Part shown: piece by piece, positions 5,660-19,970 of the stretch
How the letters are laid out: every line of letters starts with the position of its first letter
How positions within the stretch are numbered: position 1 is the first letter of the stretch
Assembly: GCA_043769455.1 (NCBI GenBank)
Contig: JAYVJH010000537.1
Coordinates: 1-31,306, forward strand
Direction of reading: 5' to 3'
DNA from: Runella sp.
Lineage (GTDB): Bacteria; Bacteroidota; Bacteroidia; Cytophagales; Spirosomataceae
DNA: 31,306 nucleotides
Translations under genes and position numbers: made by a program
The notes under the pieces: generated by a model
The model's database searches: none
The model's input: only the letters and a program-made list of their open reading frames with translations
Told to the model about the DNA's origin: nothing

Positions 5660-8600
5660 ATGATTCCTATAAAACTAACGCTCAAAGGTATTCATTCCTA
5701 TCGTGAAACCCAGACTATTGAGTTTGACAAACTAACCGAAGCAGGTCTTTTTGGTATTTTTGGTAAAGTAGGTAGTGGCAAATCTACAATTCTCGAAGCC
5801 ATTAGTTTTGTGCTTTTTGGCAAGCGAGAACGAGCCAGTAACTATGACTTGTTTAACTTACGGTCGGATAAACTACTGATTGACTTTGAATGTAGGGCTG
5901 GGCGAGACAATAATCTGTATCGGTTTGTGGCCGATGGGCGACGCAACGGCAAGCAATTTGAAAAAGTATCGATGGACAGACGGGCATATCAATGGCTGAC
6001 CGAACTCAAAGACTGGTCGCCGATTGAGTATGAAGACCCCGCCGAAAAAATTATTGGTCTGAGTTACGATAATTTTAAACGGACGATAATAATTCCACAA
6101 GGTCGCTTTCAAGATTTTATTGATTTGGGCGACACAGAGCGTACCAAAATGCTCAAAGAGTTGTTTAAACTCGAACGCTTTGATTTGTCGAAACAGTTGG
6201 CTGCCGTCAAGAGCCAAAACAAAGACCAACTTACTGAAAATCAGGCTCGAATAGATGCAATCGGTGATGTGTCGGAAGAGGTAATTGCCCAAAAAATACA
6301 CGACCTTAAAATAACCAAAGAACTGTTTTTGATAGAAAGCAAGACCCTCAGCCAACTACAAAAACAAGCTACTGAACTGACAGAACTACGGCTGAACATT
6401 GATAAATTAAACCAAGAAAAAGAAAAAGTAGATAGGTTGAACCTACAAAAGCCGTTTTTTGAGGCTCGGAAACAAGTTTTGAAAGACTATGAATTTTGTG
6501 CTACTAATTTCAAATCAATTATAGATCGTAGAGCCGACTACGCCAAAAACTTAAACCAAGACCAAACTAAACTCAACACAAAGGCTGCAGATTTTAAAAC
6601 GATTCAGGGGCAGTTAGCCATTCAACAAAAAAATATAGAAACGCTGCGGCCGCAATATGAAACACGGCAAAGACTTAAAGATGAAGCACTTGAACTCAGT
6701 AAAATTATTGACATAAAGAAAAAAAATGACCAAAAAACAGATATAGACAAACGCATTGCCAAAGGTGAAACACTACTAACTGAAAAAAACGAAGCTATCA
6801 AACAGCGACAAGCTACACTCAATATATTACAAACACAACTTCAAAAAAACAAAGCCGACCTACCAGATGTACTGCAACTGTCGGAAATAAAAACATGGTT
6901 TGCCCAAGCTAAAAATTGGGCCGATGCCCGAAAAAAATTAAAAGATGAGGCCGATGGCTTGCTCAAAAAACAAGAAACAGAATACCTAAATATAACAAAT
7001 GCCGTGTTTTATGAACAGTCAAACTTGGTTGCAGATATGCCACAGGGTACGACAACGGCGGTAGTGATTGAAGCACTGAAAGTGATTCAGGCTACCAAAA
7101 AACAAGAAATTGTGGCCTTAGACCAGTCGTTACTGTACCTAAATACTCAAAAAGCCTTACAGCAATATGCCGATGGGCTGGCCGATGGCAAGCCGTGTCC
7201 GTTGTGTGGCTCTGTGCATCACCCGAGTAGTCTTAGTTCGTCTGAAAATTTTGATAATCAAACGATTACGATAAAAAAACAACGAGCAGACTTACAAAAT
7301 CTAACAGATTTTATTGTCAAAGCGATTGGTAAAATAGAAAATAGTCAAGTAAAATTAGACGAAATAGCCCAACGTAAAAATGAAATAAAACAAGAATGGG
7401 CAACTCAAACAAACGAAATAGAGCAACATAAGCAGGCGTTTGTTTGGCAGCCGTTGTTTAGTGCCGACCAGCCCGAAGCCGTTGAAAAGGCATTTGCCGA
7501 GGCCAAAAATAAAAAAAATGATGTTGAGCGTTTGGAAAAAATCATCGAAACCGAAGCCAAAGCAATAGAAACAGAAAAAGAAACGATTAGTAAATACGAA
7601 AAGCCGATTGCTGAGTTGCGCTTAGAATCTGCGGGTTTGCAGTCGGTTATGGAATCGTTGCTGGGGCAGTTGCAAAAATTAAATTTTCAAGATTTTGTAG
7701 AAACAAACACTGAAACGCTGACTCAAAAACAGACAGAATTAGACCAGAAATACAAAAAAATTACTTTAGATTTTGAACAGTTAGACAATGTCATCAAGGT
7801 ACAAACCAATGCCAAAAGCAGCTTGGAGGGCGAGCTGAAAATATTGGACGATTCGGTAAAAAACAATACGGCAGAGTTAGCGAAAATCAAGGCCACATTA
7901 TCTGAAAAAATAATAGAAGCTGGTTTTGAATCTGAGCAAACGATTACCGATATTTTGGCTCAACGACTAAATATAGACTTGGAACGCACTGATATTCAGA
8001 CTTTTGAACAAAATATAAAACTGGCAGATCTTGCCCTGACAAATTTAAAACTATTGGTAAACAACCAAACGATAAATGCTGAACAAGAGGCCGAAGTAAA
8101 AAATAATGTGATAGAACTGGAACTGAAAATATCGGAATTACAAAAAACAGAAGGTGGTCTCAACACAGAATTAACATCGCTACAAACTCGGTTTGGCCTA
8201 CAAAAAGAACTACAAGCGGTCCGTAAAAAAGTAGAAGCCCGCCAAACAGACATTAACTTGATTGATACGTTGTTTAGGTCAAACGGTTTTGTTAATTATG
8301 TGTCGTCTGTCTATTTGCAAAATTTGTGCAACCAAGCCAATGAGCGTTTTTATAGAATGACACGCCAGCAGTTACAACTCGAAATTTACCAAAAAGACGG
8401 CAAATATGACTTTCAAGTCAGAGATTTGCTCAACGATGGCCGCACACGGGCGTTGAGTTCGTTGTCGGGTGGGCAGAAGTTTCAGGCTTCGTTGTCGTTG
8501 GCTTTGGCCTTGGCCGACAGTATTCATACCCAAAACGAAATGAAAGAAAATTTCTTTTTCTTGGACGAAGGTTTTGGGTCGTTAGACAAAGACTCGTTAC

Positions 8601-8749
8601 AAGTGGTTTTTGAAACTCTCAAATCGTTGCGCCGAGAAAACCGTATTGTGGGCATTATCTCGCACGTCGAAGACTTACAACAAGAAATCGACCGTTATTT
8701 AGTTGTTACAAACGACGAAGAATTGGGTAGTTTGGTGGCGGTGTACTAA
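5660..8749 (+). CDS. sbcC: Exonuclease SbcCD subunit C (Rad50-like SMC ATPase)
   Basis: Walker A GKVGSGKST, long coiled coil, zinc hook CPLCGS, signature LSGGQ, Walker B FFLDEGFGSLD, H-loop IISH. Confidence 0.95.
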   Translation: MIPIKLTLKGIHSYRETQTIEFDKLTEAGLFGIFGKVGSGKSTILEAISFVLFGKRERASNYDLFNLRSDKLLIDFECRAGRDNNLYRFVADGRRNGKQFEKVSMDRRAYQWLTELKDWSPIEYEDPAEKIIGLSYDNFKRTIIIPQGRFQDFIDLGDTERTKMLKELFKLERFDLSKQLAAVKSQNKDQLTENQARIDAIGDVSEEVIAQKIHDLKITKELFLIESKTLSQLQKQATELTELRLNIDKLNQEKEKVDRLNLQKPFFEARKQVLKDYEFCATNFKSIIDRRADYAKNLNQDQTKLNTKAADFKTIQGQLAIQQKNIETLRPQYETRQRLKDEALELSKIIDIKKKNDQKTDIDKRIAKGETLLTEKNEAIKQRQATLNILQTQLQKNKADLPDVLQLSEIKTWFAQAKNWADARKKLKDEADGLLKKQETEYLNITNAVFYEQSNLVADMPQGTTTAVVIEALKVIQATKKQEIVALDQSLLYLNTQKALQQYADGLADGKPCPLCGSVHHPSSLSSSENFDNQTITIKKQRADLQNLTDFIVKAIGKIENSQVKLDEIAQRKNEIKQEWATQTNEIEQHKQAFVWQPLFSADQPEAVEKAFAEAKNKKNDVERLEKIIETEAKAIETEKETISKYEKPIAELRLESAGLQSVMESLLGQLQKLNFQDFVETNTETLTQKQTELDQKYKKITLDFEQLDNVIKVQTNAKSSLEGELKILDDSVKNNTAELAKIKATLSEKIIEAGFESEQTITDILAQRLNIDLERTDIQTFEQNIKLADLALTNLKLLVNNQTINAEQEAEVKNNVIELELKISELQKTEGGLNTELTSLQTRFGLQKELQAVRKKVEARQTDINLIDTLFRSNGFVNYVSSVYLQNLCNQANERFYRMTRQQLQLEIYQKDGKYDFQVRDLLNDGRTRALSSLSGGQKFQASLSLALALADSIHTQNEMKENFFFLDEGFGSLDKDSLQVVFETLKSLRRENRIVGIISHVEDLQQEIDRYLVVTNDEELGSLVAVY

Positions 8750-8769: not shown

Positions 8770-9180
8770 TTAGGGTTTTAAATTATCTTTCTCTCGTAGA
8801 TATTTTGCCTCTATCTCAGCCTTTTCTTTTTCTGCTTGGCATAGTTTGAGTTCAAGTTGTAGTTTTTCTATTTGGTGCTGTGCTTCACGAGAATCATAAT
8901 TATTATTAGCTGTTTGGCCACCATTGTTTGTCCCTGTTACTACTTGCGGTGTGCTGCATTGGTCAAAAAAATTAGAGACAGTCTTTCCAAATTCCTCAAT
9001 ATCTTCTTTAGAAATACCGAACTCTTCGGCTATTTGCGCTATGCGCTCATCGCTTGGTTCAGTTTTGCCACGTTCAATATCTCCATAAGCTAATCGAGAA
9101 ATACCTATCATGTTAGCCATATTTTCTTGTGAAAGTCCTTTGATAGTTCTCAGAAATCTAATTTTTTCTCCTGTTTTCAT
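8770..9180 (-). CDS. XRE-family helix-turn-helix transcriptional regulator
   Basis: HTH_3 pattern KIRFLRTIKGLSQENMANMIGISRLAYGDIERG plus a C-terminal coiled coil. Divergent from the peptide operon. Confidence 0.9.
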   Translation of the reverse strand: MKTGEKIRFLRTIKGLSQENMANMIGISRLAYGDIERGKTEPSDERIAQIAEEFGISKEDIEEFGKTVSNFFDQCSTPQVVTGTNNGGQTANNNYDSREAQHQIEKLQLELKLCQAEKEKAEIEAKYLREKDNLKP

Positions 9181-9324: not shown

Positions 9325-9663
9325 ATGAAAAAAACATCAAAAAAATTTATCATTTTCGGACTATTATGTCTGTTTTTTGCTACCAACTCTATTGGTAGCA
9401 GCCCAGCTTTAGGGCGTTACAACACTATAGCCAATCCTAAAAATTATCAACCTAGCGGCGGCAAAGCCAATTATCCTGCGGTTGTAACTGCGGCTGTTGC
9501 TGTTGTAGCAACCACTTACTTTGCCGTTTATGAAGCTGGTAGAATCTTGGGCAAAGCTGCCTACTATTTTTTGTCAGGTAATACTGCAGTCAATGACGTA
9601 CAAAGTGCTGAATTTGCGTATTACAATGCAACAGATTTTTCATCTTATGACGCTAAAAATTAA
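9325..9663 (+). CDS. Secreted precursor peptide 1 (SdpC-like candidate toxin/RiPP precursor)
   Basis: 112 aa. Sec signal, GRY motif, Ala/Val/Gly-rich hydrophobic core (PAVVTAAVAVVATTYFAVYEAGRILGKAAYYF), C-terminal ATDFSSYD. First gene of an operon with SdpA/SdpB-like genes. Confidence 0.7.
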   Translation: MKKTSKKFIIFGLLCLFFATNSIGSSPALGRYNTIANPKNYQPSGGKANYPAVVTAAVAVVATTYFAVYEAGRILGKAAYYFLSGNTAVNDVQSAEFAYYNATDFSSYDAKN

Positions 9664-9679
9664 CTAAAAATAAAAAATT

Positions 9680-9994
9680 ATGAAGAAGAAAATTAACATT
9701 TTTATGCTACTGTTAGTATTATTTGTAAACATTAGCTACACAAACAGTGTCGCCATAGGCCGTTACAAAAATTCTAATATCCCCATATCAGTCAATTCTA
9801 ACGATAGAAAAGTAGGTTTTCCTGGATTGGTTTTGGCAGCACTGTACGTTGTAACATTAGGGGCGGTTTTTGTTGCTGGATTTGCTGAAGGTTGGGGACA
9901 AGCTGATGCAGCAGGTACTCAACGTTATACAGGTGTTTTCCCACTTTCAGAGAACCCAACAGATTTTTCTAAATTTGACACTGCGATAAATTAA
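9680..9994 (+). CDS. Secreted precursor peptide 2 (paralog of peptide 1)
   Basis: 104 aa. Sec signal, GRY motif, hydrophobic core (PGLVLAALYVVTLGAVFVAGFAEGWG), C-terminal PTDFSKFD. Confidence 0.7.
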   Translation: MKKKINIFMLLLVLFVNISYTNSVAIGRYKNSNIPISVNSNDRKVGFPGLVLAALYVVTLGAVFVAGFAEGWGQADAAGTQRYTGVFPLSENPTDFSKFDTAIN

Positions 9995-9996
9995 AT

Positions 9997-10677
9997 ATGA
10001 AAGGGTTTATTGAACGAGTCAGCTACGGGTGTAAAGTTCTACTTAGACTTACACTCGTAGCTACTCTATTTTTACACTTTAGTATAGTTGCTCTCGATCT
10101 TTTACCAGACAATCCTATTAAGCATCAGTATAAAAGAGAGTTGTTATACTACATGAATCCATTGTTTGCCCAGTCATGGAATTTATTTGCACCCAATCCA
10201 GTAAATTTTGATACCGCTATTTTGCTTCAATTCAAGAAAATGAAGAAAGGAAACGAAAATACTACGGCTTGGGTAGATATAATAGAACCATTATTAGAAA
10301 TACGAAGACAATCATTTTGGTCACCAACTCAAAGGGTTCTGAAAAATATGTCATCTATTACACAAAGTATAGCAGAAACCAATAACAATATTCGTATTTA
10401 TATCCAAAAAACAGATTCGCTTAAAAATAAAGATGTTGTAATTGATAAAATTTATAGCCGTCTTTATCCTACTTCACCTGGTCATATAGCACTAATACAA
10501 TATTCTAAGTATGTCTATAAAAACATGAATGAGACCGCGGATTTTGATAGTGTTTTGGTAAGATATAGAATTGTTTATCAAGAGTATCCTCGATTTTCAA
10601 AGCGAAAGCAAGATTATAACGACAAAAAAAACTGGAAAAATTCTGAAATTATTTCTAACTTTTATAAAGTCCAATGA
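9997..10677 (+). CDS. SdpA-like / DUF5819 family membrane-anchored protein
   Basis: Single N-terminal TM followed by YMNPLFAQSWNLFAPNP (the Q-x-W-x-(L/F)-F-A-P-x-P motif of DUF5819/SdpA). Immediately upstream of an HTTM gene with an ATGA overlap. Confidence 0.75.
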   Translation: MKGFIERVSYGCKVLLRLTLVATLFLHFSIVALDLLPDNPIKHQYKRELLYYMNPLFAQSWNLFAPNPVNFDTAILLQFKKMKKGNENTTAWVDIIEPLLEIRRQSFWSPTQRVLKNMSSITQSIAETNNNIRIYIQKTDSLKNKDVVIDKIYSRLYPTSPGHIALIQYSKYVYKNMNETADFDSVLVRYRIVYQEYPRFSKRKQDYNDKKNWKNSEIISNFYKVQ

Positions 10678-11879
10678 CATATAGCCAAGGCTTATCATAT
10701 TACAGGTTTGTTGTATCGTTTCTGGTAATAAAAAATACAATTTTTTATTTTCCAATGGCGAGTGAACTATTTGGTAAGAACGCCATTATCCCTTTGATGA
10801 TATATGATGCAAATAACAGTAGCCTTTTTTACTTAAAAACGCTACTCTTTTTTCCATTCCAATATTCTTACAGTGCACAATTATTTTTAATTTTGACTTT
10901 TATCACAGCGACCATATATTTGTTTGGTAAATGGCGTTTTGTTTCTGGTTGGATTCTTTATTATTTCATTATGGTAGCCAAAGAACGAAATGGTTTTATA
11001 CTTGATGGTTCTGATAATGTCATACAGGTAACATTACCTTTTTTGATTTTAGCCGAAACTTTACAACCACAGTTAGTTGCGAAAGTACTATTTTTGGATA
11101 AAATAAAAAACTTTACTAACTTTGATTTGTTCCTGTTGGCGTTAAAGGTGCAAGTATGTTTTGTGTATTTTTTTACCTCCTTAGCAAAACTACAAGGTAC
11201 TTTGTGGTTGAATGGCACTGCTGTTTACTATACTATGCGAGTGAGCGAATTTAATGCTACATCATGGAACGTACCTCTAACAGAAAACCACTACTTTGTA
11301 GTTGCATCAACATATTTTACGATTCTCTTTGAAATCGCTTTCCCTTTTTTAATATGGTTTAAGAGACCTAAATTTTTTATAATTATTGCAGGCATATTCC
11401 TACACGTAGGAATATGGGTATTTATGAGAATAGATAATTTTTCATGGATAATGATTGGTACTTATTTTCTTTTTATAGCAGACAACGAGTACAACCAGTT
11501 TCAAGCTATTGTTTACAAAAAAAGACTGTTGATTTATTTTGATAGTTGGTGTCCCAAATGTAGAGCGTTTATTTCACTAATTAGGATGATAGATGTTTTT
11601 GAAAATGTCCAATACGCATCAATCAGAGATATAAAAACAAGTGATATTATTGATACAAAGCGTTCTTTAAGAGAAATGCCATCTATTCAGACAAACAATG
11701 ATAAAGTTTACTATGGTTTTGATTCTCTTTTGAATGTTACCAAAGCTATTCCTATTCTCTGGCTTTTTGTTCCCTTGATGTATGTCTTAAAAATCACCAA
11801 CTTGGGCAAAATACTGTATAAAGAAATAGCTGATAATCGTAAAACTTTACACTGTAACGAAGATGAATGTAGTTTATAA
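10674..11879 (+). CDS. SdpB-like HTTM-domain membrane protein fused to a C-terminal DCC/DUF393-type thiol-disulfide oxidoreductase domain
   Basis: HTTM hallmarks: RNGFILDGSD, QVCFVYFFTSLAKLQGTLWLNGTAVYY, FEIAFPFLIW, GIFLHVGI. C-terminal LIYFDSWCPKC (DxxCxxC) ...YYGFDS..LYKEIADNR. Confidence 0.8.
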   Translation: MTYSQGLSYYRFVVSFLVIKNTIFYFPMASELFGKNAIIPLMIYDANNSSLFYLKTLLFFPFQYSYSAQLFLILTFITATIYLFGKWRFVSGWILYYFIMVAKERNGFILDGSDNVIQVTLPFLILAETLQPQLVAKVLFLDKIKNFTNFDLFLLALKVQVCFVYFFTSLAKLQGTLWLNGTAVYYTMRVSEFNATSWNVPLTENHYFVVASTYFTILFEIAFPFLIWFKRPKFFIIIAGIFLHVGIWVFMRIDNFSWIMIGTYFLFIADNEYNQFQAIVYKKRLLIYFDSWCPKCRAFISLIRMIDVFENVQYASIRDIKTSDIIDTKRSLREMPSIQTNNDKVYYGFDSLLNVTKAIPILWLFVPLMYVLKITNLGKILYKEIADNRKTLHCNEDECSL

Positions 11880-12177
11880 TTATTTCATACAAAGTAATTG
11901 GGTTCTTTGGTATGGTATTCCGCTGGTGTTGTACTACATTACTATATTTTATTTATTTCCAAACGTATATTTACTAAATTTGAATATACAGGAAAAAAGA
12001 ATTTATCCCCATATTAAGTCCACGCTTCTATTTGTCGCTTTACCGTATTTGTTAATATCGCTAATTATTTTTTTCATAGATATTAATATTTCCAATTCAC
12101 TATCGTCAAAGAGTGGTAGGATAATTACCTCATATCTACTCGTCAGACTTGTGTTACCATCACTTAAAATTAAGTAA
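11863..12177 (+). CDS. Small hydrophobic membrane protein (candidate immunity)
   Basis: 104 aa with 2-3 TM segments. Overlaps the HTTM gene end by 17 bp and has the same AT-rich composition. Confidence 0.5.
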   Translation: MNVVYNYFIQSNWVLWYGIPLVLYYITIFYLFPNVYLLNLNIQEKRIYPHIKSTLLFVALPYLLISLIIFFIDINISNSLSSKSGRIITSYLLVRLVLPSLKIK

Positions 12178-12181
12178 ACCC

Positions 12182-12703
12182 ATGAACATCTACACAAAGT
12201 TTTTATTCTATTCTATTGTTACTTCTCTGCTCGCCTTATTCGTTGTTTACAGTGTTTCATACTACATATCCAGTGACGGATTCTCTTCAAATGAGTCAAT
12301 TTTCTATGGTATGCTGGTCGCTTTTATCTATTTTTTAGTGTCTTTCATTACTGATACCATCTTTCTAACTCAGTATAAACAAGATTGTAAAAATGAAAAT
12401 ATATCGGTTGTAAAAAAACGGTTTCAGTTTCTGGCTATGACTATATTACCTTTTATATTTATAACTCTAATTGACTGGCTTTATTTCACCTTTATTGATA
12501 GCAGCATACCTAAAATGCACGTAGAATCAATAGCTGATGTGCTTATTTCCAATGGTCAAGACCCCGATGTAGTGTATAGTTTAGCTGAATTACCTCTAAT
12601 TGCCCAAAATATATTCGTTATTTTATTAGGTAAGATGATGAGTTCTACGTTTGCTATATTATTGTCAGACTCAATAACAAAAGACAAAGAACGTACTTAT
12701 TAG
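12182..12703 (+). CDS. ~4-TM membrane protein (DUF4199-like; candidate immunity)
   Basis: 173 aa from ATG 12182, 4 bp after the previous stop; the ORF-track start at 12149 overlaps that gene. Three TMs, a loop (YFTFIDSSIP), then a final TM. Confidence 0.6.
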   Translation: MNIYTKFLFYSIVTSLLALFVVYSVSYYISSDGFSSNESIFYGMLVAFIYFLVSFITDTIFLTQYKQDCKNENISVVKKRFQFLAMTILPFIFITLIDWLYFTFIDSSIPKMHVESIADVLISNGQDPDVVYSLAELPLIAQNIFVILLGKMMSSTFAILLSDSITKDKERTY

Positions 12704-14546: not shown

Positions 14547-17500
14547 TTATTCAATCTTCAATATTTTGCGATGTGCCGTTTTATCGTTTTGTTCTATTCT
14601 CAAATAATATTGGCCCGACGGTACATTTTGAAGTGTTAGCTCTGTACGGTTTTGTTTTGTTTGGTATTGTTCTATGAGTCGGCCTGTGGCATCTAAAATC
14701 GAAATGGTAGCGGCATTTTTGAAGGTAATATTGCCGAAATCAACTACGATTTTGTCTTGAACTGGGTTGGGAAATACCGTTATCCAGTTGGCATTTGTAG
14801 TATTAGACGTACTCAATAACTGATTTACTCTGAGGCGATATTTGCTTGTAGCAAAGCCATTTCCACAGGCATTTATTACTGATACAACACTGTAAGTATT
14901 TGTTTTGGGCGATGTCAGCGTAAATTCGTAAGGACTTGTAGATAAGTCTAATGTTGTATTTTTTTGTGCCAAACTATCGCTATAAACCAACGTCCACGGA
15001 CTTTCGCCAGACAATGCAATGGTAATTTTAGTGGTTTCGTTTTCAAAAACACTTACCGGCCCGCTGATAGTTACATTGGGTAATTCTCGAACAGAAATCT
15101 GAACAGGGCTGACTTGGCCTTTTATACTAATGTTGGGTGCTGTACCCAATACCCTCATAAAATAATTGCCACCCAGTGTATTGGCAGGAATTGTGGCCGT
15201 GAGCGGGCTAATAGTACCTTGTGTTGGAATATTCTTAAAGTCGGCGTCTATATTTGTTTTTGAAATCTGAATTGTAAAAACGGCATTGGTTGGTACAAAA
15301 TCAGACGAAAAATATGGAATTATAAAAGTCTTACCTGCACAAAGCGAGGCTACATTTGGATTTCCTGTTGTAACGGTTGAGGTTCTTATGTTGATAGTTG
15401 CCGTACCGAGAGGCGTACCATCGCCACAGTTATTAGTGATTTTTGTTACTGTATAAATTGTCGTTTCGAGTGGTGTTACGGTAACAGTTGTAGGGTTTTG
15501 ACTAACTGTTGCCGTACCAGTAAAACCATTTGAGAGCGTGTATGTCCAAGGCCCTTGTCCCGAAAATTCTATTTTCAACGTTGCTGACTGGCCTTGAGTC
15601 AGGCTTGTTTCGCCACTAATGGTAGCCGTTGGCAATGGTTGAATAATCGCTACTATTTTGGCTCTATCGCTTTCACATCTGGTGGTAGCATCGGTTTGAG
15701 TAGCAAAAAAATCGTAAGTACCAGGTATTTGTGTAAAAATACCATAAACTGAGCCAGAGAAGGCAGGTCTGTTACCGTTGTACCACTTAATATCCGTGCC
15801 TGTAGCAGTAAGGTTTGCTATTGCTGCATTTTGACAGAACACAACTGGGTCTGTTGTTACGATTGGTTTGGGAGTAACTCGTACTTTTACAGTCAATATT
15901 GTGCGCTCACTTTCACAGCCGTCTAAGGTTTGTGTAACCCCATAATTTGCTATTAATGAATTGCCTGTTGTAATCATTGGGGCATCTGCCGAAGCTGTGT
16001 TGTTGGGGTAGTACCAGCGCAAAGCCGTGCCACCCGCTGTAAGTGTAAGTGTTGGGTCAAACTGACACAACAGATACTCTGTTATTAACTGGGTTGGTTT
16101 TTGAGGTAAAAACTTAACAAAAAAATTGATTTGTGTTTTTGGGCTTTCACAACCAAAGCCATTTACCTGAGATACAAAATATTGCCCAGCGCCAGCTATT
16201 TGAGTATTTACGGTCGGTGCATTTGGCAATGAGTTCAGCGAGAAAGTGTACCATTTTAGTGTGCTACCGTTGTCGGGTGTTCCTGTCAAGGGCTGTGCTG
16301 TTTCAAAACTACAATAAGTTGGACTTGCATTAGTTGGTGGTGTAATTGGTGTAGGATTGACCAATACCGTAACTGTTGAGCGAGGGCTTTCGCAGCCCAA
16401 TCCTGTTGTTTGAGATACATAGTAGTAGGTTGTTCCAGCAGTTTGTGTTGTCAATGTAGGCGACTGATTGGACGAAAAACCACCTGTAATTGTGCTATAC
16501 CACCCCAGGGTATTGCCGCTTGCTGGTGTTGCTACCAATGTGGTTGCAGGGTAGTTTTGACAAAAAACAGGATTGATAAAAGGTGGTGCTGCTGGTGTTG
16601 GGTTTATGCTTACATTGATGGTAGTAGCATTGCTTTCGCAACCAAAACCGTTTGTCTGCGTTACGGCATAGGCCGTTGTACCTGTGTTGGCAGTACTTGG
16701 GGTTGGTGCAGTACTCAGCACAGGGCCCGGAAAAGAATTATACCATTTTATGTTTGTACCATTGGCTGTTAGTTGGTTTGATGGGTACGTTTGGCAATAG
16801 GTAATGGCGGTAGTGGTAGTGGGTGGTGCGGGTTGTGGGTTTACGTTTACTTGTACCAAAGTACGTGGAATATTCTCACAACCTGCAAAAGTACCAGATA
16901 CATATAATCGTTGTGTTACATAATAATTTGTAATACCTACATTGGCAGAGCTTGGTATAGGTGCCGTACCTGAGCTATTGCCACCTGTTGCGGCTGCGTA
17001 CCAGCTGATGCTTCCTCCTAAACTTGGTGTGGCTACAAGTGGATTAGTATTGCTATTTTGACAATAAGTAATATTTGAAGCTGATGGTGCAGGGGTAAAA
17101 TTGACCAATGCCGTAATAGTAGCCTGCGGACTTTCGCAGAGTGCTGGCGATGCGGTAATTTGTGATACTTTATAGGTATAAGTAGTGCTTCCACCTACGT
17201 TGGTATTGGGTGTGGGTGCAGATGTTCCAGTAAAGTTTCCATTACCGTCGTACCATTTCAAGGTATTGCCTGTGCTTGGGCTTGCGTTCATGGCACTTGC
17301 ACCGTCGTTTTGGCAATATACTGCACTCGAAGCCGAGGGTATGGCAGGTATGGCATTGATTGTTACCGTAATTGTGGCTCTTGTACTTTCACAACCATTT
17401 AGTATTTGGCTTACATAATAGTTTGTACTACCGACACTGGCCGATGATGGTACAGTTGCTGCCCCAGATGGTATGCCACCTGTTGCATTTGGTCCATACC

Positions 17501-19970
17501 ATTGAGCAGATGCACCTGTTACAAAAACGCCCGACAAGGCAGTTGTAGGGGCATTGTTACAAATATTGACTGGGGTAGTAACGCTCGGTGCATTTGGAAC
17601 GGCATTGACCAAAACAGAAACGGGTGTACGTGGTGTGCTTTCGCAGCCCGTGGTTGTATTTTTCTGGACTACATAGTAAGTTGTCGTTCCCAAAACGGCA
17701 GTACTTGGTATGGTAGCAGTAGTTGTACCTGTGCCGCCTGTGGTGTTTATGTCATAATATACCAACGAAAATCCAGACGTAGCTGGTGCAATATAGTTTG
17801 ACAATGCTGGCGTACTTTGGTTTTGACAAGCAACTACCGGCAACGAAGCCGTAATGGTTGGTGCTTGCGTAACATATACAGTCGTTGTTACTGCCGTTCT
17901 GGGTGCAAACTCACAGCCATTGGCGTTGGCTTGTGTAACGTAATAAGTGGTGTTTGTAGTAGTTGTAACTGCTGTATTTGGGGTTGGTGCGCCAATTACA
18001 GTTCCAGCAGTTGCTACTGCATACCAGCGAATGGTATTGCCAGTAGATGGTGTTGCTACCAACGGCGTGCTACTTTGTCCTTGGCAGAGTAGTACCGAGG
18101 TGGTTGTAGTTGGTGCGGCTGTTGGTGTTGCGTTTACAGTTACCGTTATAGCCGTCCGTGGGCCTTCGCAATTCAGTCCAGTTATTTGAGACACATAATA
18201 ATTGAGAGTCGTTGCGCTGGCCGTCGATGGTGTTGGGGCTGTTGTTACAAACGTACCACCTGTTGCCACCGTGTACCATCTGAGGGTATTGCCAGTTGCT
18301 GCCGTTGCCGATAGTGGTGTGGCCACATCGTTTTGGCAATAAGTATAGGTAGTAGTAGCGGCTGGTGCAGTAGGTGTAGGATTTACATTTACAACAATCG
18401 TAGCACGTACACTCCCGCACGTACCCAACTGCGATACATAATAGCTTATTGAGCCACTTGTAGCAGTAGCGGGCGTAGGTGCTGTTGCGCTGGCTGTGCC
18501 ACCCGTAGCGACCGTGTACCATTTCAGGGTATTGGTACCTGTTGCCGTGGCACTAAGTGCGGTGGCAGTAGCATTTTGACAGTAAATAACTGGCGATGTA
18601 ACTGTTGGAGCAGCAGGCAATGGGTTGATAGTTACAGTTACGGTCGTCCGTGGGCTTTCGCAATTTAGTCCTGTTATTTGAGATACATAATAATTGAGAG
18701 TTGTGGCAGTAGTAGTCGATGGTGTTGGGGCTGTTGTTACAAACGTCCCACCTGTTGCCATTGTGTACCATCTGAGGCTACTACCAGTTGCTGCCGTTGC
18801 CGATAGTGGCGTGGCTACGTCATTTTGGCAATAAATATAGGCAGTAGTAGCGGCTGGTGCAGTTGGTGTAGGATTGATATTTACAACAATCGTAGCACGT
18901 ACACTCTCGCACGTACCCGCCGACTGCGATACATAATAGCTTGTTGAGCCACTTGTAGTAGTAACGGGCGTAGGTGCAGTTGCGCCTGCTGTGCCACCCA
19001 TAGCGACTGTGTACCATTTCAGGGTATTTGTACCTGTGGCCGTGGCATTAAGTGCGGTAGCAGTGGCGTTTTGACAATAAATTACTGGCGACGTAACCGT
19101 TGGAGCAGTTGGGGCGGCACTAACGGCTACTATTACGGCTGTTCGTTGGCTTTCGCAAGTACCATCGGTCTGAGAAACATAATAGTTAAGTGTTGTTGCT
19201 GTGGTGGTAGATGGCGTGGGGGCAGTGGTTACAAACGTACCACCCGTTGCCACTGTGTACCATCTGAGGGTATTACCTGCGGTTGCTGTTGCCGATAGTG
19301 GTGTGGCCACGTCGTTTTGGCAATAAGTATAGGTAGTGGTAGCGACTGGTGCGCTGGGTCCTGTTACAACTACCGAAATACTGGCACGAGTATTACTCTC
19401 ACAACCACTCACAGTTTGAGTTGCAAAATATGCGCTTGTAGAAGGTGCTGTTGTGCTGGGTGTTGGGGCTGTTGCGCTAGCTATACCGCCTGTTGCTGCC
19501 GTGTACCACAAAATGGCCATTCCAGCAGCCGATAGTGGTACGGCAGTTGTGCCTGTGCAATAATTAACTGGGCTTGTAACGGCGGGTGCGGCAGGCGGTA
19601 CTGCAACTGCAAACGCTGGGCTACCTGCACTCGTAACCACCACAGGACCTGACACTATCCGAACCGAATAGGCCGAACCAGATGTGAGCGATGCGGGTAG
19701 AGTTATGGTAGCAGGGCTGGCAGCAGTTGCGCCCAGCACGGTAGGAACCAAAAAACTACCCATAGCATCAGACAATTCAACAGAATAAGAAGGCGTACCT
19801 ACAAAACCCGTGGCCGTAAACGACACAATAGCCGTGCTACCCGAACAAAACGCCGTTGCCCCCGCTGGTAACGACATACCAACACCACTAATAGTTTGGC
19901 TGTAAACACTAACTGATAGTAAACCTGAAAAAAGACTTAGGCTTAAAGAATAAAGTATTTTTTTGAACAT
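14547..19970 (-). CDS. Large T9SS-secreted surface protein / putative adhesin with 16 tandem Ig-like (CHU_C-associated type) repeats and a type A CTD
   Basis: Signal peptide (VYS-Q). Sixteen ~80-aa repeats P..P...(Y)C Q...L.A...G..L.WY...GG...PTP.T....YYVSQ...CES.R. C-terminal VFPNPVQD..ILDATGR..L.NVPSGQYYLRI..KILK. Confidence 0.9.
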   Translation of the reverse strand: MFKKILYSLSLSLFSGLLSVSVYSQTISGVGMSLPAGATAFCSGSTAIVSFTATGFVGTPSYSVELSDAMGSFLVPTVLGATAASPATITLPASLTSGSAYSVRIVSGPVVVTSAGSPAFAVAVPPAAPAVTSPVNYCTGTTAVPLSAAGMAILWYTAATGGIASATAPTPSTTAPSTSAYFATQTVSGCESNTRASISVVVTGPSAPVATTTYTYCQNDVATPLSATATAGNTLRWYTVATGGTFVTTAPTPSTTTATTLNYYVSQTDGTCESQRTAVIVAVSAAPTAPTVTSPVIYCQNATATALNATATGTNTLKWYTVAMGGTAGATAPTPVTTTSGSTSYYVSQSAGTCESVRATIVVNINPTPTAPAATTAYIYCQNDVATPLSATAATGSSLRWYTMATGGTFVTTAPTPSTTTATTLNYYVSQITGLNCESPRTTVTVTINPLPAAPTVTSPVIYCQNATATALSATATGTNTLKWYTVATGGTASATAPTPATATSGSISYYVSQLGTCGSVRATIVVNVNPTPTAPAATTTYTYCQNDVATPLSATAATGNTLRWYTVATGGTFVTTAPTPSTASATTLNYYVSQITGLNCEGPRTAITVTVNATPTAAPTTTTSVLLCQGQSSTPLVATPSTGNTIRWYAVATAGTVIGAPTPNTAVTTTTNTTYYVTQANANGCEFAPRTAVTTTVYVTQAPTITASLPVVACQNQSTPALSNYIAPATSGFSLVYYDINTTGGTGTTTATIPSTAVLGTTTYYVVQKNTTTGCESTPRTPVSVLVNAVPNAPSVTTPVNICNNAPTTALSGVFVTGASAQWYGPNATGGIPSGAATVPSSASVGSTNYYVSQILNGCESTRATITVTINAIPAIPSASSAVYCQNDGASAMNASPSTGNTLKWYDGNGNFTGTSAPTPNTNVGGSTTYTYKVSQITASPALCESPQATITALVNFTPAPSASNITYCQNSNTNPLVATPSLGGSISWYAAATGGNSSGTAPIPSSANVGITNYYVTQRLYVSGTFAGCENIPRTLVQVNVNPQPAPPTTTTAITYCQTYPSNQLTANGTNIKWYNSFPGPVLSTAPTPSTANTGTTAYAVTQTNGFGCESNATTINVSINPTPAAPPFINPVFCQNYPATTLVATPASGNTLGWYSTITGGFSSNQSPTLTTQTAGTTYYYVSQTTGLGCESPRSTVTVLVNPTPITPPTNASPTYCSFETAQPLTGTPDNGSTLKWYTFSLNSLPNAPTVNTQIAGAGQYFVSQVNGFGCESPKTQINFFVKFLPQKPTQLITEYLLCQFDPTLTLTAGGTALRWYYPNNTASADAPMITTGNSLIANYGVTQTLDGCESERTILTVKVRVTPKPIVTTDPVVFCQNAAIANLTATGTDIKWYNGNRPAFSGSVYGIFTQIPGTYDFFATQTDATTRCESDRAKIVAIIQPLPTATISGETSLTQGQSATLKIEFSGQGPWTYTLSNGFTGTATVSQNPTTVTVTPLETTIYTVTKITNNCGDGTPLGTATINIRTSTVTTGNPNVASLCAGKTFIIPYFSSDFVPTNAVFTIQISKTNIDADFKNIPTQGTISPLTATIPANTLGGNYFMRVLGTAPNISIKGQVSPVQISVRELPNVTISGPVSVFENETTKITIALSGESPWTLVYSDSLAQKNTTLDLSTSPYEFTLTSPKTNTYSVVSVINACGNGFATSKYRLRVNQLLSTSNTTNANWITVFPNPVQDKIVVDFGNITFKNAATISILDATGRLIEQYQTKQNRTELTLQNVPSGQYYLRIEQNDKTAHRKILKIE
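18130..19360 (-). repeat. Intragenic 492-bp-period tandem duplication (Ig repeats 2-6, A-B-A-B-A)
   Basis: The anchor TTTTGGCAATAA starts at 18331, 18823 and 19315 (exact 492-bp spacing). Alternate repeats are nearly identical in protein sequence. Confidence 0.85.

Follow-up and report, generated by a model that had tools for sequence, protein, structure and literature searches.

The window analysed here, a stretch of 31,306 nucleotides (nt) from Runella sp. (contig JAYVJH010000537.1), carries an operon in which two small precursor-peptide genes are followed by a gene for a DUF5819 protein and by a gene for an HTTM membrane domain fused to a DCC1-like thiol domain (HTTM-DCC; Table 1). HTTM proteins, relatives of the human clotting-factor carboxylase GGCX, are widespread in bacteria, with a chemistry and substrates that are largely unknown; the DCC (DUF393) family has no established bacterial function. 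With two candidate substrates, an enzyme of two parts and naturally occurring forms that either have or lack the thiol domain, the operon is a compact test system. A sequence-only reading of this DNA had proposed that the redox domain serves the enzyme or a cofactor instead of forming a disulfide in the substrates. That core proposal is well supported by the analysis described below; its suggestion of a glutamate target in the peptide cores is not supported.

Pfam analysis of the HTTM-DCC chain gave matches to HTTM (33.1 bits against a cut-off of 27.7, residues 154-269) and to the DCC1-like family (49.3 bits against 27.8, residues 287-393, covering profile positions 1-111 of 113), and the same search revealed no VKOR domain (PF07884) in the chain. 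Two cysteine motifs accompany the DCC domain: DSWCPKC (D290-S-W-C293-P-K-C296), which follows the pattern DxxCPxC, and CNEDEC, which ends three residues ahead of the stop. D290, C293 and C296 are invariant both in an alignment of 23 fused homologues and in an 81-sequence alignment of DCC domains, and C394 and C399 are conserved at 90% or more among the 23; as they are kept across these homologues, the motifs are not there by chance. The ending that the sequence-only reading had described, a DCC-type domain with a CxxC motif plus a terminal CNEDEC, was thereby confirmed. Its label "SdpB-like" is a loose one, since the SdpB model TIGR04033 of NCBIfam scored 49.7 bits, below its cut-off of 178.4. 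Homologues are named "DCC1-like thiol-disulfide oxidoreductase family protein" or "HTTM domain-containing protein" at NCBI, and the fusion is already present in databases and in a 2026 preprint, so that the protein described here is a new example of a known, uncharacterised architecture. Two close HTTM homologues (P0087 and P0089, 40-41% identity) carry a class C beta-lactamase/peptidase-like domain (PF00144) in place of the DCC domain, which could be a proteolytic partner for peptide trimming.

Table 1. Features of the HTTM-DCC gene and of the surrounding peptide operon (positions in the window; aa, amino acids; TM, transmembrane helix).
Feature	Positions	Strand	Length	Remarks
HTTM-DCC open reading frame	10674-11879	+	401 aa	
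HTTM membrane domain, residues 1-284	10674-11525	+		PF05090; equivalent of GGCX TM1-TM8
K172 codon	11187-11189			
DCC1-like domain of putative thioredoxin/glutaredoxin fold, residues 285-393	11526-11852	+		PF04134; predicted cytoplasmic
DSWCPKC motif	11541-11561			
Flexible C-terminal tail with Cys pair C394-x4-C399, and stop codon	11853-11879	+		
CNEDEC motif	11853-11870			
Divergent XRE-type helix-turn-helix (HTH) regulator	8770-9180	-	136 aa	HTH_3 PF01381, E 7e-13
Precursor peptide 1	9325-9663	+	112 aa	Signal peptide, G-R-Y leader motif, Gly/Ala-rich hydrophobic core, C-terminal D-F-S-x-Y-D tag
Precursor peptide 2	9680-9994	+	104 aa	Second peptide type; core ending x-E-G-W, D-F-S-x-F-D tag
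DUF5819 partner	9997-10677	+	226 aa	PF19136, 77.8 bits against cut-off 27.1; N-terminal TM helix and periplasmic domain
Small membrane protein	11863-12177	+	104 aa	Overlaps the end of the HTTM-DCC gene; no family above Pfam cut-off
Polytopic membrane protein	12149-12703	+	184 aa	Four to five hydrophobic segments; candidate immunity protein

An AlphaFold2 model of HTTM-DCC built on the 23-sequence alignment reached a mean predicted local distance difference test score (pLDDT) of 79.7. In this model, residues 1-284 superpose on residues 58-327 of human GGCX (Z 14.8, root-mean-square deviation 3.7 A over 239 residues); 16 GGCX entries headed the structural ranking and the next unrelated rows had Z values of at most 6.6. 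Profile-to-sequence alignment paired K172 with Lys218 of GGCX, W178 with Trp223, E220 with Asp263 (acidic in both, E for D) and H244 with His287, and all four residues are invariant among the 23 homologues. Since these four GGCX residues form the site that binds and deprotonates vitamin K hydroquinone, the HTTM domain looks competent for quinol chemistry as judged from sequence. As the four equivalents are invariant, it is plausible that the enzyme works as a quinol oxygenase and would therefore need reduced quinone.

The side of the membrane on which the DCC domain lies bears directly on what it can act upon. GGCX has nine transmembrane (TM) helices, of which TM6 and TM7 are monotopic, with a lumenal domain after TM9 and a cytoplasmic N-terminus. 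As the HTTM chain stops after the equivalent of TM8, the GGCX topology puts its end on the cytoplasmic side, and the DCC domain begins at the position of the cytoplasmic TM8-TM9 loop of GGCX. The distribution of charge agrees with this placement family-wide: predicted cytoplasmic loops have mean K+R counts of 4.8 (residues 130-151), 2.4 (residues 229-234, with zero acidic residues) and 3.5 (the linker), and predicted periplasmic loops are low in K+R. Unfused orthologues carry a short K/R-rich tail directly behind TM8, and stand-alone DCC proteins start 2-5 residues ahead of the domain and have no signal peptide. In many relatives of 600-700 aa, an HTTM- or DoxD-like membrane domain is followed by a DCC domain, by exactly one TM helix and then by a soluble domain of 130-190 aa that belongs to no recognised family; the single helix places the DCC and the last domain on opposite faces of the membrane. 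Examples of this class are P0254, P0256, P0263, P0206, P0234, P0201 and P0242, whose layout mirrors GGCX with a DCC domain in the TM8-TM9 loop. Comparison of their last domain with DUF5819 by hhalign gave a probability below 1% in all three classes, and no homology between the two is claimed. The N-terminus of the DUF5819 protein is positively charged ahead of its single TM helix, which makes its domain face outwards.

The sequence-only reading had pointed to topology prediction as the means of placing the DCC domain, and these six agreeing lines of evidence put it in the cytoplasm. The catalytic Lys lies at the outer end of TM5 and the substrates carry Sec signal peptides; with a cytoplasmic DCC domain and exported substrates, the thiol domain and the substrates would be separated by the membrane. 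We therefore regard it as very probable that the DCC domain is cytoplasmic, across the membrane from both the peptides and the catalytic Lys.

The composition of the peptides leads in the same direction. Peptide 1 has its sole Cys at position 15, within the signal peptide, and peptide 2 has zero, so that the claim of the sequence-only reading that the only Cys of either precursor sits in the signal peptide of peptide 1 was borne out by the translations of the open reading frames (ORFs). For a wider view, one genome per species was scanned, which gave 28 related loci, and an iterated profile search yielded 47 small ORFs, of which 46 were kept as precursors for the census, the window's two included. 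This family, always found upstream of DUF5819-HTTM, shares a signal peptide, a G-(S/A)-Y leader motif, a Gly/Ala-rich hydrophobic core of two recurring types and a near-invariant C-terminal D-F-S-x-F-D tag. At loci with a fused DCC domain, 7 of 8 precursors have no Cys after the leader, one has a single Cys and none has two; at unfused loci the corresponding numbers are 30, 7 and 1 of 38, which brings the totals to 37, 8 and 1 of 46.

These numbers bear on the view that the precursors themselves are the targets of the DCC domain, which would work in the periplasm, or on the peptides before they are exported, to make, reduce or isomerise their disulfides or thioether-type links, as for the disulfide of B. 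subtilis SDP. Mature SDP does contain a disulfide within the segment C141-S182 of SdpC, the family is named "thiol-disulfide oxidoreductase", and a minority of the related precursors has one post-leader Cys. However, the two pro-peptides of the window are free of Cys, as are the post-leader parts of 37 of the 46 precursors, and the lone two-Cys precursor belongs to an unfused locus; moreover, the topology evidence puts the DCC domain opposite the exported peptides, and unfused orthologues handle the same peptide types. A substrate-directed role is accordingly very improbable. The proposal of the sequence-only reading that the domain is no former of substrate disulfides has now gained a topological basis, and together with the absence of two-Cys precursors at fused loci and the occurrence of unfused orthologues beside the same peptides it makes the conclusion that the DCC domain is not a substrate disulfide catalyst well supported.

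The suggestion that a single core Glu is the modified residue fared differently. Each of the window's two peptides has one Glu in its hydrophobic core and a second Glu in the pro-peptide closer to the C-terminal tag, and the position of the core Glu is not conserved in the peptide family: it is occupied by E, F, S, N, D, A or Q in type 1 and mostly by D, with E, N, T, S or R in others, in type 2. The core Glu was thus rejected as the target; the conserved acidic residues of the precursors are the two Asp of the C-terminal tag.

To place the fusion within its family, we built a maximum-likelihood tree of 76 HTTM domains by a quick search. Fused and unfused forms are interleaved on it, with well-supported branches forcing at least 6 state changes and parsimony giving 14; some of the rows scored as unfused come from short contigs and may be truncated, and complete unfused genes are present in the genome loci. 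Unfused orthologues sit with the same peptide family and with both peptide types, and maturation of the same family with or without a fused DCC domain argues against a role of this domain in a product-defining cross-link. The DCC domain looks like an accessory module that was repeatedly gained or lost. Dispensability of the domain, which the sequence-only reading had set against its own proposal, is therefore seen in the evolutionary sense, through those gains or losses. No separate DCC gene was found within 6 kb of the unfused loci, and a housekeeping DCC is encoded elsewhere in all 5 unfused genomes examined and in the window's own genome (a stand-alone protein at G000:C109:2649-2975, locus L029, 111.6 bits). 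Such a protein might act in trans for the unfused enzymes.

Modelling of the isolated DCC domain with 81 relatives gave a pLDDT of 88.6 (93-98 in the core) and a beta-alpha-beta-alpha-beta-beta-alpha topology. The last 14 residues, which hold the Cys pair, have a pLDDT of 40-66 over the full-length and isolated models, and of 66-54 in the isolated one. A mobile Cys-bearing tail beside a CxxC motif recalls the shuttle disulfides of other thiol oxidoreductases. The terminal Cys motif is not special to the fusion: a terminal C-x3-6-C is present in 69 of 91 DCC relatives that stand alone and in 29 of 45 that are fused, and the housekeeping DCCs of the window's genome and of five related genomes have the CxxC plus one conserved tail Cys. 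A fusion-specific Cys pair is thus rejected, the tail Cys being a general feature of the DCC family.

Four cysteines in two short motifs are also a classic arrangement for zinc, and the CxxC and C-x4-C might bind the metal, or the domain might only stabilise or assemble the HTTM-DUF5819 complex, with no redox turnover in either case. Repeated loss of the domain fits such a role, as the enzyme core does not need it. Against this, the modelled tail is disordered despite the 81-sequence alignment and is not packed on the CxxC, and the housekeeping DCCs, which are the canonical members, have only three Cys; both observations speak, if weakly, against zinc in a structural site. Furthermore, the DxxCxxC motif lies at the N-terminus of helix 1 of the modelled thioredoxin-like fold, the canonical redox position, and Arabidopsis DCC1, the one family member for which thiol-disulfide exchange is reported, is described as a functional thioredoxin (Zhang et al. 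2018, as summarised in PMC6603150). A structural or vestigial domain is in our view improbable.

The structural neighbours of the DCC model are GST, CLIC, DHAR, glutaredoxin (Grx) and thioredoxin (Trx) folds with helical extensions, with weak scores (Z 7.2 to 4, Foldseek E of at least 0.036). They raise the prospect that the domain protects the producer from by-products, by a peroxidase- or GST-like removal of quinone (hydro)peroxide, semiquinone or reactive oxygen species (ROS) at the inner leaflet. The GST-, CLIC-, DHAR- and Grx-type neighbours and the Grx-like CPxC active site are in keeping with it, as are a stand-alone DCC of the same subfamily coupled to bshC and the increase of mitochondrial ROS reported for an Arabidopsis DCC1 knock-out. 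Yet the Z values fall within the range that the tool flags as a common arrangement, the link to bshC is a single locus and no peroxidatic signature was identified in the domain, so this role is as improbable as a structural one.

The bshC locus emerged from a metagenome scan with the single DCC protein, which found one locus, an activated-sludge contig (L043); at E of 1e-8 or below, the window's DCC subtype was found only in its own genome among a 401-genome sample of the phylum. In L043:2460-4372 a stand-alone DCC (123-129 aa, with a C-D-E-N-C tail) overlaps by 22 nt the end of an equivalog of BshC, the cysteine-adding enzyme of bacillithiol synthesis (305.8 bits against a cut-off of 265.8). 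As a single-locus lead, this suggests that the window's DCC subtype may work with bacillithiol. In the window's genome, the start of a bshC gene lies at a contig end.

Taken together, the observations are best explained by a bacterial GGCX-like peptide-maturation enzyme with an accessory cytoplasmic thiol module that feeds its cofactor, a reading to which we assign a probability of roughly 0.4. HTTM-DCC would be the catalytic membrane subunit, DUF5819 would contribute the ninth helix that this chain lacks together with a clamp-like domain in the periplasm, and the two Sec-exported, tagged peptides encoded upstream would be the substrates. The DCC domain would take electrons from the cytoplasmic thiol pool, through thioredoxin or bacillithiol, and hand them to a menaquinone cofactor, either by reducing quinone to quinol or by re-reducing an epoxide by-product. 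Quinol would thereby stay available in the presence of O2, much as VKOR, assisted by a thioredoxin-like protein, secures it for GGCX. With its conserved quinol site, the enzyme should require both reduced menaquinone and O2, and an epoxide by-product may be expected by analogy with GGCX; attached where the quinone-binding TM5-TM8 bundle ends, the thiol domain would be well placed to feed the cofactor. Circumstantial support for such a role comes from links between DCC proteins and quinones or thiols: DCC domains are fused to several DoxD-clan membrane domains across lineages (one DoxD+DCC fusion among them), a plant DUF393 protein occurs in the proteome of the quinone-rich plastoglobules, Arabidopsis DCC1 is reported to modulate complex I as a thioredoxin, and the stand-alone DCC gene mentioned above overlaps bshC.

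Several points weigh against cofactor reduction by the DCC domain. We know of no DCC protein that has been shown to reduce a quinone or an epoxide. In GGCX the head of the quinone is bound in the outer (lumenal) leaflet, a long way from a CxxC in the cytoplasm, and the cofactor would thus need to flip or to be reduced elsewhere in the membrane. No conserved Cys was found in the HTTM domain of the 23 homologues or in the cytoplasmic N-terminus of DUF5819, which leaves no thiol relay. Most orthologues are without a fused DCC domain, and the two VKOR-domain proteins of the genome and its housekeeping DCC could do the same job. We therefore hold the cofactor-reduction mechanism of the DCC domain as a tentative proposal. 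In its furthest extension, this proposal makes HTTM-DCC a complete bacterial vitamin K cycle within a single chain: the cytoplasmic DCC domain, recharged by thioredoxin or bacillithiol, would reduce menaquinone or its epoxide on behalf of a GGCX-like enzyme that faces the periplasm and modifies ribosomal toxin peptides. That extension appears doubtful.

The linker between the HTTM and DCC domains (residues 268-284) is well ordered in the AlphaFold2 model, with a pLDDT of 86-89, which would also suit a redox switch. In such a switch the CxxC and the tail Cys would sense the thiol state or oxidative stress and gate the HTTM domain through a rigid linker helix, passing no electrons to a cofactor. 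The predicted cytoplasmic location of the DCC domain is consistent with it, its dispensability in many orthologues is what one would expect of a regulator, and Arabidopsis DCC1, the one relative that has been characterised, reportedly acts as a modulator of complex I, likewise a membrane enzyme. On the other hand, the cytoplasmic loops of the HTTM domain offer no conserved Cys or other obvious receiver, and the recurrent fusions between DCC and DoxD-clan domains across lineages fit a catalytic partnership better than a lineage-specific regulation. A switch of this kind, and with it a gating of toxin maturation by the physiology of the producer, is unlikely, if less so than a protective or structural role.

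The predicted cytoplasmic position of the DCC domain turns the question to how reduced quinone is supplied to a periplasm-facing quinol oxygenase in an aerobic cell. If cofactor recycling is true, it would constitute a VKOR-independent route of quinone or epoxide reduction and give the DCC/DUF393 family its first biochemical function, that of a thiol:quinone or thiol:quinone-epoxide reductase unrelated to VKOR. If it is false, what remains is an add-on for regulation or structure that the enzyme can do without, and the finding is an ordinary one.

The remainder of the operon is shared with its relatives. Its gene order is kept in Bacteroidota: between one and five small precursor genes come first, DUF5819 and HTTM (fused to DCC or not) follow, and in most cases a homologue of the 184-aa membrane protein comes next. 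This order is seen in Hymenobacter, Cyclobacteriaceae, Pedobacter, Emticicia, Arcicella, Capnocytophaga, Saprospiraceae and others. DUF5819 stands directly upstream of HTTM in nearly all related loci retrieved, and in the window the two genes overlap by 4 nt. BLAST analysis placed homologues of the 184-aa protein downstream of HTTM in 16 related loci (5 of these matches being weak, E 1e-4 to 6e-3), and the protein is inferred to be a candidate for immunity. Homologous divergent HTH genes are present at loci L004 and L026 as well. The 226-aa partner had no NCBIfam match at E of 0.1 or below, and thus none to SdpA; the precursors had no match to SdpC. Peptide 1 scored 15.9 bits with the lactococcin G alpha model NF038035, below the cut-off of 37, over a 16-residue small-xxx-small stretch only.

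Variation among the related loci includes five tandem D-F-S-x-F-D precursor genes upstream of DUF5819-HTTM in Hymenobacter sp. H14-R3 (L005:3293-5137), where several cores are weakly hydrophobic, which makes the precursor set expandable. In a metagenome-assembled genome of Emticicia (L026:5983-6902), the HTTM gene is divided into two overlapping ORFs (195 and 123 aa) by a frameshift or an assembly error, the operon with its three precursors being otherwise intact. In the window, the operon is accompanied by genes for a 1029-aa SbcC/SMC-like ATPase (5660-8749, plus strand) and a 1807-aa repeat-rich secreted protein (14547-19970, minus strand), the C-terminus of which resembles a type IX secretion sorting domain. 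The G+C content of the operon is about 31% against 38-50% around it, which hints at horizontal acquisition. The genome also contains a second, more canonical HTTM gene split over two contig ends (C22:13-513 and C564:9-272), and its two large VKOR-domain proteins (ORFs of 559 and 472 aa) have their domains at C323:1855-2211 and C181:1558-1929.

The closest known counterpart of the window's pair is that of Melghirimyces thermohalophilus, an HTTM-DCC1-like protein with an adjacent DUF5819 protein that was modelled by AlphaFold3 with menaquinol at the conserved Lys/Trp; in that model the DUF5819 TM helix replaces a TM helix of GGCX and the DUF5819 domain replaces the GGCX clamp (bioRxiv 10.64898/2026.08.19.745780). 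The two pairs have the same three domains in the same order and a conserved Lys/Trp quinol site, and the preprint notes the GGCX-like complex. They differ in phylum (Bacillota and Bacteroidota) and in the length of the fusion (447 and 401 aa). The preprint leaves the substrates unnamed and is silent on where the DCC domain lies and what it does; the operon of the window holds a tagged precursor pair and candidate immunity genes.

In human GGCX with VKORC1, the HTTM domain finds its equivalent in TM1-TM8 with the catalytic residues kept, and a CxxC protein that regenerates quinone is the proposed parallel to the DCC domain. GGCX, however, includes TM9 and a large lumenal domain in its single chain, a part for which the window has DUF5819, and carboxylation of the window's peptides is hypothetical. 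VKOR is a separate membrane enzyme of four helices with a lumenal CxxC, in contrast to the soluble DCC domain, which is of putative thioredoxin fold and predicted to be cytoplasmic. A different combination is seen in the VKOR-thioredoxin protein of Synechococcus (PDB 3kp9/4nv2), which also fuses a quinone-binding helix bundle to a CxxC domain, there of thioredoxin fold, and the modelled TM5-TM8 bundle of HTTM aligns weakly with the VKOR bundle (Z 4.8). The two have no family-level homology, and the thioredoxin domain of the former is periplasmic, with electrons passing from secreted proteins to quinone, whereas the flow proposed for the window runs from the cytoplasm to quinone.

The sdpABC and yitPOM operons of B. 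subtilis resemble the window in that each has a precursor with a signal peptide and a hydrophobic core at its C-terminal end, an HTTM protein and an accessory protein that processing requires, and a membrane immunity protein encoded close by, but SdpB lacks a DCC domain, and it is the window that has a DUF5819 partner, two tagged precursors and a Gram-negative host. MloH of malonomycin biosynthesis is a bacterial HTTM enzyme and an orthologue of vitamin K-dependent carboxylase for which carboxylation is reported as demonstrated (Law et al. 2018). Its substrate is a polyketide-peptide intermediate and not a ribosomal, exported peptide; it is fused to a DUF5819-like part, and a DCC domain is not reported for it. 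Finally, Arabidopsis DCC1 shares the Pfam family of the window's thiol domain and is reported to be a functional thioredoxin that acts on the quinone-reducing complex I (PMC6603150); it is a stand-alone organellar protein that targets a complex I subunit and has no HTTM partner.

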